IMG/VR virus record: IMGVR_UViG_2563366922_000008 | Coordinates: 1-37,816 of that record | From: a virus | Lineage: Duplodnaviria > Heunggongvirae > Uroviricota > Caudoviricetes | Strand: one strand, 5' to 3' | DNA: 37,816 nt | Shown: positions 1 to 5,391 of the stretch, in pieces | How positions within the stretch are numbered: position 1 is the first letter of the stretch | How the letters are laid out: each line of letters starts with the position of its first letter | Notes under the pieces: generated by a model | The model's database searches: none | The model's input: the letters and a program-made list of their open reading frames with translations, nothing else | Told to the model about the DNA's origin: nothing | Made by a program: the position numbers and the translations under genes

Positions 1-117
1 ATGATTCTGAACCAGCCTGGTGCACGGCTGGGACGGAAGTCGCTGTCGTTCTCAAAATCGGTGGAGCTGCATGACAAAGTCATCGGGCATTATCTGAATA
101 TAAAACACTATCAGTAA
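1..117 (+). CDS. Possible 3' end of a gene truncated by the window edge (38 codons then TAA)
   Basis: Open frame from position 1 to stop at 115-117, convergent with the minus-strand gene ending at 111; no recognisable motif, could be non-coding. Confidence 0.2.
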
Positions 118-317
118 GTTGGAGTCATTACCGACAATGCGCAGGAATCACGAAACTCGTTCAGATCAGGCTTATTACCATCGACTTTAACGGCAGTATT
201 TGGCTTAAAATAAAAACCAGCGCCCCACCCGTTACCGCGCACCTCAATAATGGCAATGCTGTTAATTCCTTTAACCTCTCCACCGTCAAATTTGAAAGCA
301 CCGCTTTCTGTTTTCAT
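111..317 (-). CDS. Hypothetical 68-aa protein downstream of tailspike
   Basis: [20 protein letters not shown]...; ATG at 317 sits 9 nt after GGAGA and 1 nt after the stop of the upstream 61-aa gene (translational coupling); longer alternative starts at 326/344/356 exist. Confidence 0.4.
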
Positions 318-318
318 T

Positions 319-504
319 TTAATCATTCTCCGTAACAGGTTCATTGTGAGCAGCATTTAGTACTCGCTGGAGTGGCTGGTCATTTTCGCGATCTAATTCA
401 GCCTGTAATGCATTCATTGAAGAATTAAAAGCAGGAACTTCATGACCGCTAAGATTTACGCGAAGCATAAACTGCATGATATTTTGAATAGTTTGCTTAT
501 CCAT
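319..504 (-). CDS. Hypothetical 61-aa protein immediately downstream of tailspike
   Basis: ORF MDKQTIQNIMQFMLRVNLSGHEVP...; ATG at 504 preceded by AGGA; starts 12 nt after tailspike stop. Confidence 0.4.
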   Translation of the reverse strand: MDKQTIQNIMQFMLRVNLSGHEVPAFNSSMNALQAELDRENDQPLQRVLNAAHNEPVTEND

Positions 505-516
505 TTTATTGTCCTG

Positions 517-1953
517 TTAAGTTAAACCAATTAATCCATGCCCGGTTGAAGCATGTAAGTCCTGAATTAATGCTGCAACTACCTTTGCTAAATCTTCGTG
601 AGTTATTGTTCCAGAGTTAAATGCTGCTCGGGATACGGTGCCGGTTGGCGATCCCCATCCCGTCCTCCTCTCTGAAATAACTTGATTGCCATTAAGTCGT
701 ATTCTTAAGTTGTTGAAGTTAGCCCAGTTCTCAGCCCTGTTGAAACTCAAATGTGTTGTATTTGCCGGGCCCGTTCCTACCGTAATTCGTTGATTGTCGC
801 CCATCAAAATTGCGCAGTTGTTTGAAAATCTAGCTTCAGAAAATGAAATTCCACTCCTAAAATAATTTGTTCTAAATCTAATGCCGTTTGCAGCTCCAGA
901 TGATAGAGATCCCTCAAGTCTGATGTATTCGCCATTACCTACCTCGGTTAGTTCCTCTGTTGGAGTGGAAATAGAATTACCTCTAAACAACATTCCTGTC
1001 CAGATATAACCATTTGGAGCTTCACTCCCTCTTCCGATGGTAATCATCTGTGTTACTGGATTGCTTTTATCCTGAGTTACACATACCAACCCTCTTACAG
1101 ATCCTTGCAGTGCATTCTCCATCCATCCTTTATCGGGACCTCGATTATTCAGATTAAATTCATGTGCAATAGTGCTAATCGCTCCATTCTGCACTGCATC
1201 TCCTAATACTGCACCATATGACCACCCCCCCCATGTTTCGGCTTGCGGATTTCTTGATTCTCCACGCATGTGGTGACCAATTGAATGCCCATTCCCTCCC
1301 TCATGCTTAGCAACACTTGTAGTTGTGCATGTATATGCACTTCCTGACACCTTGCGCAAAGAGTTATAAATTACCCCCTGATCCCATCGTTTGATGCCGT
1401 CATCCCTAGTTGCAGAACTAATTTTTTCCAGCCAAATAATGGGATCTGGAATTGGTGTTTCTGGTATGGAGAATCTCTGTCGTGTAGCATTTTTATATAT
1501 GATAGTTTCATTGTTATAAATATTGTCACCAGCTGCATCTGAACCAGTCCATCCTGAGCCAGCATAAAAATTCTTAAGTCCATCACCAGACTGTCCAGTC
1601 AAAACTACTCTTAACTGATCCGGGTCATACTTCAGCACATTTGGGAATTTGAACTGCTGTGCACCATACGCATCATAAACAGCCATAGAATGGCCTTGCT
1701 CAGTTACGAATTTGGCAATCTGTCCGTTATATACAGGGTAACCAGCGGCGTTAATGATGATTGGTTGCGAAACGGGAACATGAGAGCCGTCTTCGTTCTC
1801 TACATAAACCTGAATCTGGTTTTCAGGATTTACTGGGTCAGTGTCAATTTTACCGATATAAATCTTTCCATTAGCTACGGCTTTAAAAGAACGAGCCATA
1901 GTGAAGAGTTGCGAAGGCATGCTGACTACAACATTGGCTGTAATGTCTGTCAT
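517..1953 (-). CDS. Tailspike / tail fiber protein with P22 gp9-type N-terminal head-binding domain and a divergent receptor-binding region
   Basis: 478-aa ORF; N-terminus [11 protein letters not shown]...[33 protein letters not shown]...NVLKYDPDQ matches the P22 tailspike head-binding domain as I recall it; rest unlike the P22 endorhamnosidase; GGAG 8 nt upstream of ATG. Confidence 0.8.
1225..1232 (-). repeat. Homopolymeric G8 tract (C8 on plus strand) inside tailspike coding sequence
   Basis: Plus strand ...accaCCCCCCCCatg...; encodes W-G-G-W (tgg ggg ggg tgg) in the tailspike frame. Confidence 0.9.
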
Positions 1954-2021
1954 TTAATTTGCTCCAGATACAAGGAATCGCCGCAGCATTGCCACAGTGA
2001 TGCATTATTAATCAAACAAAG

Positions 2022-2036
2022 AGACCACTGTGGTCT
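2022..2036. promoter_or_regulatory. 15-bp palindrome AGACCACTGTGGTCT in mnt-tailspike intergenic region; candidate Mnt operator
   Basis: Perfect 7-bp inverted arms around a central T, about 65 bp upstream of mnt; resembles the symmetric P22 mnt operator in style (recalled, not verified). Confidence 0.35.
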
Positions 2037-2099
2037 TATTGAGGATGCAACCAGCAGATAATAAGATGCCGATCCACTCACAAAAGCGAGGCATCAAGA

Positions 2100-2351
2100 A
2101 TGGGAAGAGATGACCCGCAATTTAATCTGCGGCTACCTTACGAATTAAAGGAAAAACTAAAACAGCGAGCCAAATCCAATGGCCGCTCTCTTAATTCAGA
2201 ATTAGTTCAGATAGTTACTGATGCTGTATCAAAGCCATCCAAAATTTCAGGCTATCGAGACGATGCGGAACGCATCGCTGATGAGCAGTCCGAACTTGTT
2301 AAGAAGATGGTGTTTGATACGCTGAAGGATTTGTACAAAAAACCCACCTGA
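2100..2351 (+). CDS. mnt: Mnt repressor (ribbon-helix-helix, P22 immI-type)
   Basis: 83-aa ORF MGRDDPQFNLRLPYELKEKLKQRAKSNGRSLNSELVQIVTDAVSKPS...ADEQSELVKKMVFDTLKDLYKK, matching P22 Mnt in length and sequence as recalled. Confidence 0.85.
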   Translation: MGRDDPQFNLRLPYELKEKLKQRAKSNGRSLNSELVQIVTDAVSKPSKISGYRDDAERIADEQSELVKKMVFDTLKDLYKKPT

Positions 2352-2367
2352 CGGTGGGTTAATTTTT
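2341..2367 (+). terminator. Rho-independent terminator-like hairpin at mnt 3' end
   Basis: aacccacc-tgac-ggtgggtt followed by aattttt; mnt stop codon lies in the loop. Confidence 0.5.
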
Positions 2368-2450
2368 GCATTTACCTGGGCCATATTGACTACTTATAAA
2401 ATGAGATCAATATTTAATCGCCCAATAACGGGTGTATGTTGAGGTATATC

Positions 2451-2630
2451 ATGGCGAAAAAACCAGGTGAAAACACAGGAAAAAACGGCGGAATATACCA
2501 AGAAGTTGGCCCGCGCGGCGGTAAGAAAGACAATTTTGCCACCGTCAAGGACAACGAAAGGCTTCCACCAACAACAAAGCCAGGTCATGGCTGGGTATTA
2601 GATAAGCGAACTCCAGACAGCAAAAAGTAA
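2451..2630 (+). CDS. Hypothetical small basic Gly/Lys-rich protein (59 aa)
   Basis: ATG at 2451 with GAGGT 5 nt upstream; MAKKPGENTGKNGGIYQEVGPRGGKKDNFATVKDNERLPPTTKPGHGWVLDKRTPDSKK; followed by a terminator hairpin; table ORF starts at an upstream TTG. Confidence 0.45.
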   Translation: MAKKPGENTGKNGGIYQEVGPRGGKKDNFATVKDNERLPPTTKPGHGWVLDKRTPDSKK

Positions 2631-3543: not shown

Positions 3544-5391
3544 TTATTGCTGTTCTGCTGTAATTTGGCTTGAAAGTATAGGGCGTATCGCATTTGCAGC
3601 ATTATTTAGCGCTCTTTCATAGGCTGGCGTTCCTGCTTTGGTGTTTGCCAAACGTAAGAGAGCATTCCTTGCTGCTTTGGACTCATACAAGCGCATCATT
3701 GCACCGAAACCAGCCTCAAGCCCCATTGATACGCCAAGAGTCGCAGTTGCGCCAATCGTCCTTATCCTGTTGGCTTGCGATTGCCCCGTCTGAGTTACTA
3801 CATTTGCGGTGTCTGACCTTGCTGTTTGCTGTAGAACTTCATGAAGAGCATCAAGCTCTTTCATGTGCTTTCCAGAAAAAATAGTGTTGTAAATTTCACC
3901 GCCTGACTGAGATTTCAGCTTATTAACTTCAGTGATGAACTTGGCTGGAGAGTCACCGGATTTTTCCGCTATTTTGCTGACGTAAGCTGCACGCATAGCA
4001 TCTTTCCCTTTATCATCCAATGCGCTCCAGATTCGTTTCACGTCAGATGGTTTTCTGCTTAATACAACGGTATTTATAAGTTCAGGACTGGCTTCACTGC
4101 TTGCCTTGTTGAGCTTGTTAGCAATGTTTTTATTAAGCACCTTATTATAAACGTTTGCATAATCGGAATTTGCTTTAAGGTATTTTGCTGCGTCTGATGC
4201 ACCGAGGTTTTTAGCAACTGCGTTACGAAGGTCTTTTGACATTGCATTCTCTACCATATTGGTAGCTGCTTTTGCCTGGTTGGGGAAGACCATAGCATCT
4301 CCCTGAACATTAGATCTAAATGCTGTTCTGTGCTGACGCAAGAGATCAAACGTAACATCCAAATCAGTTGCAGGGTTTGCTAATTCTTCACGTAGGTTAC
4401 GCAAGGATGTAAGCAGGCTTTGATTGGCAGATGTCCCAAGCCGTTCCTGTCTTGCGATCGCTGTATTCAGAGCATTCATGGTATTTGTGGTATCAACTGA
4501 GGCATTACCCATTTTATTGGTGACGTCATTGATAACAGCGCCATCGGCATCCTTCCGCCCCCTTAACGTGGTGGTCAGAGATTTCACCACATCATCAGGG
4601 TTGTACTCACCAAAACGGTCAAAATAATTACTTACCAGCTTACTACGCGTTGCATATTGCTCAGCTCGCTTTGAGCCTGTCCCGAGCAAAGCCCCCTCGG
4701 CATCCTGAGTAAGGCCACGAGTGAAAGCATTTTTCGGTGGGATGACATCAGATGTCATTGGCGTCACACCCATTGATTCTGAGGTGGCAATTTTTTTCGC
4801 TACTTCTGGCGCGATATCGCCTTTTATAGCCGTTATTCCACGCCCTATTCCCTTTGCTGCTGCGGAAAGAACACCCTGAGCGGCAAGGTTAACTCCGGCA
4901 TTTATGGCTGCATTTTGCGCGAAATCACCTTTCTGGTTTGCGGCTTCTGCCAGTGATCCAATAGCCATGCTTCCTGCCGTTCCAACTCCTGGAACTAAAT
5001 ACCCGCCAATTGTTTCTCCAGCTTGCGCATAAGGGTCTGTCGGTCGATCGACAGGGCGATAAACATCATCCAAAACCTTGGGGCCACCAAGCCCCTGGCT
5101 GATTGCATTAATCAGACTTGCGCCACCCTGCAATACGTCAAATGGTATGTTTACCAGACCACGACCAGCCTGTTCTGCAATTTGCCCTGCACTTTGAGCA
5201 CCTGTGAGCCAATCGCCAGCTTGTTGCATCAATGATGGTTCTTCACGTGCTGGTTCATTATTGGCCTGATTAACTGTTTGTTGCTGAACAGCCTGACCAG
5301 CAAAATACTCATCAATGGCGGTGCCAATATCTTCCGTGCTCGTACCATCAGGGAAGGTAAATGTCTTACCGTTTGCAGTTACTTTCATCAT
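3544..5391 (-). CDS. Ejection (injection) protein, P22 gp16-like
   Basis: 615-aa [36 protein letters not shown]...; position and size as P22 gene 16; start ATG overlaps gp20 stop. Confidence 0.85.

Follow-up and report, generated by a model that had tools for sequence, protein, structure and literature searches.

The window, by which we mean the whole stretch of 37,816 nucleotides that was analysed (positions 1 to 37,816 of the IMG/VR virus record IMGVR_UViG_2563366922_000008), carries at its left end the following features.

1-132, plus strand: remnant of the 3' end of an IS1 element, comprising the C-terminal part of InsB (1-117) and, at about 110-132, the terminal inverted repeat
111-317, minus strand: ORF-B, 68 aa, of which only 133-317 (62 codons) is native
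319-504, minus strand: ORF-A, 61 aa, intact
505-516, minus strand: spacer of 12 nt from the spike stop codon to the ORF-A start, containing an AGGA ribosome-binding site
517-1953, minus strand: tailspike gene, 478 aa, an intact ORF by the ORF list and the sequence
520-720, minus strand: C-terminal tip of the spike (residues about 412-478), homologous to the tip of P22 gp26, domains III-IV
1615-1953, minus strand: P22-type head-binding domain of the spike (Pfam Head_binding)

An earlier sequence-only reading of this DNA had described a 61-aa and a 68-aa ORF following the tailspike on the same strand, with gaps of 12 nt and 1 nt and with ribosome-binding sites, and both the ORF list and the sequence confirmed it. 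An RBS-like AGGA lies 8 nt before the ATG of ORF-A and a GGAG lies 11 nt before the ATG of ORF-B; the gap between the two genes is the single nucleotide 318, and an 81-aa version of ORF-B is possible from an upstream ATG. Direct sequence reading showed the spacer 505-516 to be identical in L011, a relative free of IS1. No terminator-like site was noticed between the spike and ORF-A/ORF-B, and in L011 a terminator-like hairpin occurs only after ORF-B (L011 6407-6426), so that co-transcription with the tailspike, as had been proposed, is plausible. In this P22-like prophage ORF-A and ORF-B stand at the far end of the late transcription unit that includes the spike. The promoter scan returned promoter-like sites no more numerous than in shuffled sequence, the Rfam scan of window 1-2600 returned no RNA family and composition analysis gave nothing distinctive. 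The window (504-519, with the stop codon and 12 nt in between) and L011 have spike and ORF-A in the same frame, whereas L009 and L005 do not, and the shared frame is therefore probably coincidental; a read-through fusion of spike and ORF-A was considered and rejected, since the frame relation is not kept in the latter two loci.

The identity of the upstream gene as a tailspike also held good. Residues 1-113 of the spike match Pfam Head_binding with E 3.6e-65, and among PDB sequences its N-terminus matches the N-terminal domains of the Sf6 (E 3e-65) and P22 spikes, so that the N-terminal head-binding domain by which P22-like tailspikes are recognised is present. The protein is laid out as this P22-type head-binding domain, a receptor-binding body, for which homologous bodies were found in Kagunavirus (65% identity), Phapecoctavirus and others, and a gp26-like tip. 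RefSeq calls the spike of this prophage family a pseudogene 'missing C-terminus', and only the head-binding part is covered there (L002 6598-6952; L003 and L004 6195-6563). However, the ORF in the window is intact and its 478 aa are similar in length to those of its relatives; the pseudogene label looks like an annotation artefact, the spike body having no model.

The ORF that had been reported to run off the left end of the window (1-117, plus strand) does so, and encodes the C-terminal end of InsB, the IS1 transposase (Pfam DDE_Tnp_IS1, E 9.6e-14, covering profile positions 97-131 of 131). It is followed by the terminal inverted repeat, as in IS1; window 2-134 is matched by over 5000 IS1 copies on plasmids, and the DNA alignment with L011, which is free of IS1, breaks off at window 132/133. 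In RefSeq, 'IS1 family transposase, incomplete' is annotated at this place in the same prophage. In strain EF5-18-41, which has an identical prophage, only about 140 bp of IS1 are left (compare L002 4829-5116), and beside them lie a 105-aa gene, itself truncated, and intS, which sits at a tRNA-Arg gene. Window 1-132 shares the InsB C-terminus and the terminal repeat with IS1, but it is a remnant, and it marks a deletion, not an active element. In the IS1-free relatives (L003, L009 and L011) the order is spike, ORF-A, ORF-B and/or a third small gene, ORF-C, a convergent GT2 glycosyltransferase gene (393 aa), a 79-aa gene, the 105-aa gene and intS. The deletion took the 3' end of ORF-B, the GT2 glycosyltransferase, the 79-aa gene and most of the 105-aa gene, the GT2 region having been lost through the IS1 event itself or through a linked event. 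The GT2 glycosyltransferase of the intact relatives is likely an O-antigen conversion gene, and the gene order in these relatives indicates that the region which probably held the serotype-conversion gene has been deleted in the window.

Conversion genes beyond the spike of P22-like phages include gtrABC, and small conversion proteins are found in epsilon15. A role of the two small genes in O-antigen conversion or receptor modification, which the sequence-only reading had considered, was not supported by our analysis. ORF-A and ORF-B share with conversion genes the same general region, between spike and integrase, but they have no Gtr or glycosyltransferase domain and no clear membrane segment, either of which would mark a conversion protein, whereas the GT2 gene of the relatives lies further out and on the other strand; moreover, homologues occur in lytic-looking phages.

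The description of two small genes stood for ORF-A, which is intact, but not for ORF-B, which is a chimera cut by IS1: 62 native codons are followed by six IS1 codons and a stop. The window copy reads '...FRDSCALS' and then 'VMTPTY-stop', codons 63-68 and the stop being supplied by the terminal repeat of IS1. Lengths of 74-94 aa are found in intact homologues, of which P0050 (88 aa) and P0044 (94 aa) continue '...CALS-MFPLPAIDALYVAACVAF...'. Most of the invariant columns of the ORF-B family fall in the part lost from the window copy, which has neither the full length of 74-94 aa nor the block MFPLPAIDALY-x-AACVAF that define the family. The AlphaFold model of intact ORF-B (pLDDT 68.7, moderate) shows a three-stranded sheet and a short helix, with a long helix (66-86) packed after the sheet at the C-terminus; this last helix is missing from the window copy. 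ORF-B of the window represents two-thirds, counted from the 5' end, of a companion gene that is optional and was cut here by the IS1 insertion; having lost the most conserved C-terminal part, it is a stump that is most likely inactive. The same truncated allele was found in three complete E. coli genomes. Homology search returned 22 relatives of ORF-B, and a scan of viral contigs with the ORF-B profile returned only two loci. ORF-B has no match in Pfam, NCBIfam, PADLOC or PDB sequences, and in Foldseek searches of PDB and BFVD its moderate-confidence model matched nothing at E below 0.1. The maximum 19-residue hydropathy of the truncated protein is 0.56. In intact ORF-B the invariant block MFPLPAIDALYVAACVAF (P0050 residues 63-80) has a mean Kyte-Doolittle value of 1.67 over 19 residues, which is borderline hydrophobic, and intact ORF-B may be anchored in or associated with the membrane.

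ORF-A belongs to a large and widespread family of phage proteins with about 50 aa. A word-indexed search returned 138 homologues and an exhaustive profile search 631 representative clusters (50% identity) at E<=1e-3; the best 150 of these 631 family representatives are all 39-114 aa long. By sequence match ORF-A falls in PHROG 18977 (E 0.0043 for window ORF-A; 9 of 40 family representatives match, best E 1.4e-7), an entry with no functional annotation. The core motif F-M-x-R-V-x-L-x-G-x-E-V-P-A-F occupies residues 12-26 of window ORF-A, and this protein motif is retained from Escherichia to Aeromonas and Vibrio phages. Pairwise dN/dS was 0.12-0.37 for ORF-A and 0.11-0.53 for ORF-B, with dS often saturated, and the protein motifs of both persist despite saturated synonymous sites. 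Both genes are, as judged from these codon comparisons, under purifying selection, and they are evidently real protein-coding genes conserved across many phages and prophages. Conservation in related prophages, which the sequence-only reading had named as a point to look for, was found.

The AlphaFold model of ORF-A, built on a 30-sequence alignment, has a pLDDT of about 90 over residues 1-40 and consists of two helices (3-15 and 20-38) and a disordered tail. The helical hairpin 1-40 is conserved, while the acidic tail, with a net charge of about -3, is variable. The protein has a pI of 4.7 and a maximum 19-residue hydropathy of 0.38, and neither a membrane segment nor a signal peptide was noticed in sequence analysis. 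Among distant relatives F12, R15, L18, G20, E22, V23, P24 and L33 are invariant or nearly so, and the invariant residues cluster in the loop between the helices and at the start of helix 2, which suggests that they form an interaction surface rather than only a core. ORF-A has no match in Pfam, NCBIfam, PADLOC or PDB sequences, and its only Foldseek matches among viral models were small phage proteins that are themselves uncharacterised.

In L015, L008, L024 and L023 the position of type 1 is taken by another, very divergent type of ORF-A ('ME.V...L...QLS.I.EAL.NL.YR...PV...IN.QI.QQ'), which follows spikes with a tip ending '...NRNHGLIA(T)S'; an alignment suggests that the two types may be homologous. 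A similar 60-aa protein lies behind a 252-aa tip-bearing protein in 'Microcystis phage MACPNOA1'.

We then compared the surroundings of ORF-A across 19 loci from at least ten phage backgrounds, and in 19 of 19 a spike or fibre gene ends 1-40 nt before its start. The backgrounds and arrangements are given below.

P22-like prophages (the window, L009, L011, L018): ORF-A after the spike
Phapecoctavirus nieznany, a myovirus (L001): ORF-A after the spike
Kagunavirus siphoviruses (L006, L019): ORF-A without ORF-B or ORF-C
SU10-like podovirus (L021): ORF-A between fibre and adaptor genes, no ORF-B or ORF-C
Lambdoid prophages (L015, L024): ORF-A after gpJ and a side spike
P2-like myovirus (L029): baseplate V, W, J and I, a 533-aa fibre-like gene, ORF-A, a second fibre gene
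Contig with T7-type terminase (L027): ORF-A only, after a 236-aa fibre
Aeromonas-type siphoviruses (L005, L033): ORF-A after the spike or fibre
Other siphoviruses (L023, L031): ORF-A after the spike or fibre
154-kb contig (L028): ORF-A after the spike or fibre
Unclassified phage contig with a DNA polymerase gene (L008): lysis cassette after the module
Short contig (L035): ORF-A after the spike or fibre
Vibrio siphophage (L007): A-like gene; the protein encoded ahead of it has no recognisable tip

In the phage collection, too, an A-like ORF was observed downstream in every record carrying this spike family. Some of the carriers look lytic by taxon or gene content, and in these ORF-A lies inside tail gene clusters. 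ORF-B and the 80-aa ORF-C occur only in subsets and, in the sampled loci, always behind ORF-A. ORF-C carries the motif 'MAL..LYIRVE.PRV.GK...PYATIDC', has no match in Pfam, NCBIfam, PADLOC or PDB sequences and, like ORF-A, is small and acidic. PHROG scans of all three small proteins returned, apart from PHROG 18977, nothing but noise.

The proteins encoded upstream of ORF-A have a common end. In 18 of the 19 loci, the exception being the Vibrio locus L007, they terminate in a gp26-like tip with a shared motif of about 60 aa, '..G.KVLG.RQTGW...TGT....F.....T...LA..V.AL......HGLIG..'. A profile of eight related spikes matched the gp26 structures PDB 4zkp, 3c9i and 2poh with E 3e-5 over the whole tip, and the 236-aa fibre of L027 matched the same structures with E 3e-10 up to its last residues, while the window tip alone gave E 0.036 against gp26. 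A tblastn search with a 57-aa tip query, which is insensitive, matched only itself. By position, which we took in this study as a further mark of the family, window ORF-A behaves like its relatives, following a spike gene with such a tip at a 12-nt gap. The tip also occurs in proteins of 144, 236 and 252 aa that have no large spike body, and ORF-A is still found downstream of these, which argues for a coupling to the tip and not to the enzymatic body. The likeness is to the tip of P22 gp26 (PDB 2poh, 3c9i, 4zkp, 5bu5), and it extends over the last 60 or so residues of the spike and of nearly all proteins that precede ORF-A. However, in gp26 the tip ends a needle, whereas here it ends a tailspike, and no A-like gene was found with needle genes. 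No ORF-A match was obtained in P22-like phage records, though their P22-type needle genes carry the tip, and this implies that the fold of the tip has no inherent need of ORF-A. In a relative, the annotation gives the needle of this prophage family as knob type. The variants of ORF-A and of the tip do not strictly co-vary, type-1 ORF-A being found with both tip types. It may be noted that the same gp26-like tip ends the spikes or fibres of many unrelated phages. Tips of this trimeric kind may serve in trimer registration.

Since the ORF-A family lies always right after spike or fibre genes, it probably helps to assemble or cap the spike tip. We lean, with modest confidence, towards ORF-A being a tip-specific assembly factor or a tip-bound subunit, with ORF-B and ORF-C as dispensable add-ons. 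ORF-A would be made with the spike from the same late transcript and would act on its gp26-like C-terminal tip, either as a dedicated assembly or trimerisation helper, like the tail-fibre chaperones encoded downstream of fibre genes, or as a small subunit that remains attached to that tip. The loop motif R-V-x-L-x-G-x-E-V-P-A-F would provide the contact surface, and ORF-B, as well as ORF-C of the relatives, would be dispensable additions to the same module. The Kagunavirus, SU10-like and T7-type loci make do with ORF-A alone, while ORF-B and ORF-C come and go. The strongest support comes from the invariant synteny over unrelated tail architectures, together with the placement after a fibre-like gene in the P2-like locus.

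Tail-fibre chaperones are encoded directly downstream of the fibre gene in several phages, namely lambda Tfa, P2 gpG, Mu gpU and T4 gp38, and T4 gp57A is an example of a small helical chaperone. In the P2-like locus L029 ORF-A comes directly after a fibre-like gene, as the chaperone gene G does in P2. ORF-A has in common with these chaperones that it is a small co-oriented gene 3' of a receptor-binding gene and travels with the C-terminal module. However, Tfa has about 175-190 aa as against a core of about 35 aa in ORF-A, and the client of ORF-A would be a beta-helix spike ending in a gp26-like tip rather than a fibre whose tip depends on Tfa. Neither ORF-A nor ORF-B could be placed with the Tfa or Caudo_TAP chaperones, as no Pfam, NCBIfam, PDB or annotated Foldseek match was obtained for them. 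The suggestion of the sequence-only reading that these genes might encode chaperones is hence supported for ORF-A by synteny, but not by any match to chaperone domains. A literature search returned no described small chaperone adjoining such spikes and no mention of a link between ORF-A and gp26 tips.

The evidence also holds points against a partner of the tip. ORF-A has no sequence or structure likeness to known chaperones and the proposal is built on synteny; the A-like gene of the Vibrio locus follows a tipless protein; needles in the P22-like phage records manage without ORF-A, the co-variation of tip and ORF-A is loose, and no spike-A fusion proteins were found among the best 150 of the 631 family representatives. 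Furthermore, gp26 refolds alone in vitro, which counts against a need for ORF-A. One may argue instead that the small genes are morons or host-directed genes, serving superinfection exclusion, receptor masking or modification, or anti-defence, in the variable region beside the spike. Temperate relatives have them in the accessory region between spike and integrase, near the GT2 glycosyltransferase; ORF-B and ORF-C are optional and patchy, ORF-A and ORF-C are small and acidic, and the C-terminal segment of intact ORF-B is borderline hydrophobic (KD19 1.67). Yet ORF-A, sometimes with ORF-B and ORF-C, lies within the tail clusters of lytic-looking phages, such as between fibre and adaptor in the SU10-like phage and in the P2-like locus, and all 19 loci tie it at 1-40 nt to one kind of upstream gene, which is unexpected for a free-standing moron. 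ORF-A also lacks a PADLOC, Pfam or NCBIfam match, a clear promoter of its own, a signal peptide and a membrane segment, and we consider this explanation unlikely.

It is conceivable, too, that ORF-A is kept mainly as DNA, as a homology arm or boundary for swaps of receptor-binding cassettes, its protein being of little importance. The ORF-A and ORF-B pair has 84% DNA identity between the window and Phapecoctavirus nieznany, where the spike bodies have only about 28% identity (protein), and the match begins within 7 nt of the spike stop, an abrupt change; what look like scars of cassette exchange also adjoin ORF-A, for example the tip fragment in L031. But the low dN/dS of ORF-A, the persistence of its motif at synonymous saturation, the spread over 631 clusters at 50% identity and a fold predicted with confidence all speak for the protein, and this explanation is very improbable. 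It is likewise very improbable that ORF-A has another late function, such as control of lysis timing or late gene expression, and merely stands at the end of the late operon. It does stand there in P22-like prophages, and in L008 a lysis cassette follows the module; the position with respect to lysis genes is, however, not conserved, whereas that with respect to the tip-bearing gene is, and ORF-A neither contains a membrane segment nor matches a nucleic-acid-binding domain or any other known one. That ORF-A and ORF-B are chance ORFs in AT-rich DNA, as their shortness (61 and 68 aa) and the want of curated domain matches could suggest, is refuted by the homologues, which number in the hundreds, by purifying selection, by start codons that are conserved and have ribosome-binding sites, and by folds predicted with confidence, and its probability is negligible.

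The tip-partner reading can be carried further, and here we are more tentative. ORF-A would then represent a hitherto unrecognised class of very widespread mini-proteins, each a helical hairpin of about 35 aa with an acidic tail, that are obligate chaperone or cap partners of receptor-binding proteins with a gp26-like trimeric tip across podo-, sipho- and myoviruses, with ORF-B and ORF-C as optional subunits; we hold this to be possible, without expecting it. The family as such was already known as PHROG 18977; its association with gp26-like tips, which is not recorded there, is a clean and testable lead. Receptor-binding proteins are the main target of host-range engineering, and tailspikes serve as diagnostic and enzymatic tools. 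If the proposal is true, cassette swaps or recombinant expression of this spike class that omit ORF-A would fail. The pair of spike and ORF-A could also help annotation pipelines to recognise such proteins, an intact spike being at present marked as a pseudogene. For the window itself the message is smaller: ORF-A is one small hypothetical gene, ORF-B is an IS1 stump and the serotype-conversion region is deleted.

Some further observations were made on the sequences adjoining ORF-A in the other loci. In L031 a leftover 45-aa piece of a gp26-like tip ('...LRAHGLITT', 4317-4454) adjoins ORF-A, and in L028 a leftover 42-aa N-terminal piece of ORF-C (4146-4274) does so; both fragments look like scars of receptor-binding cassette exchange. 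In Phapecoctavirus nieznany the spike gp226 is annotated to end '...YVKNYLML', and the 40-nt spacer that follows (L001 6317-6356) encodes 'HGLIGPT-stop' in another frame, which suggests a frameshift or a sequencing error in the gp226 tip. In the same phage gp224 (L001 5884-6156), a protein of 90 aa, is ORF-B fused to the last ten or so residues of ORF-C ('PPYAATSIDC'), an internal deletion having apparently removed most of ORF-C.
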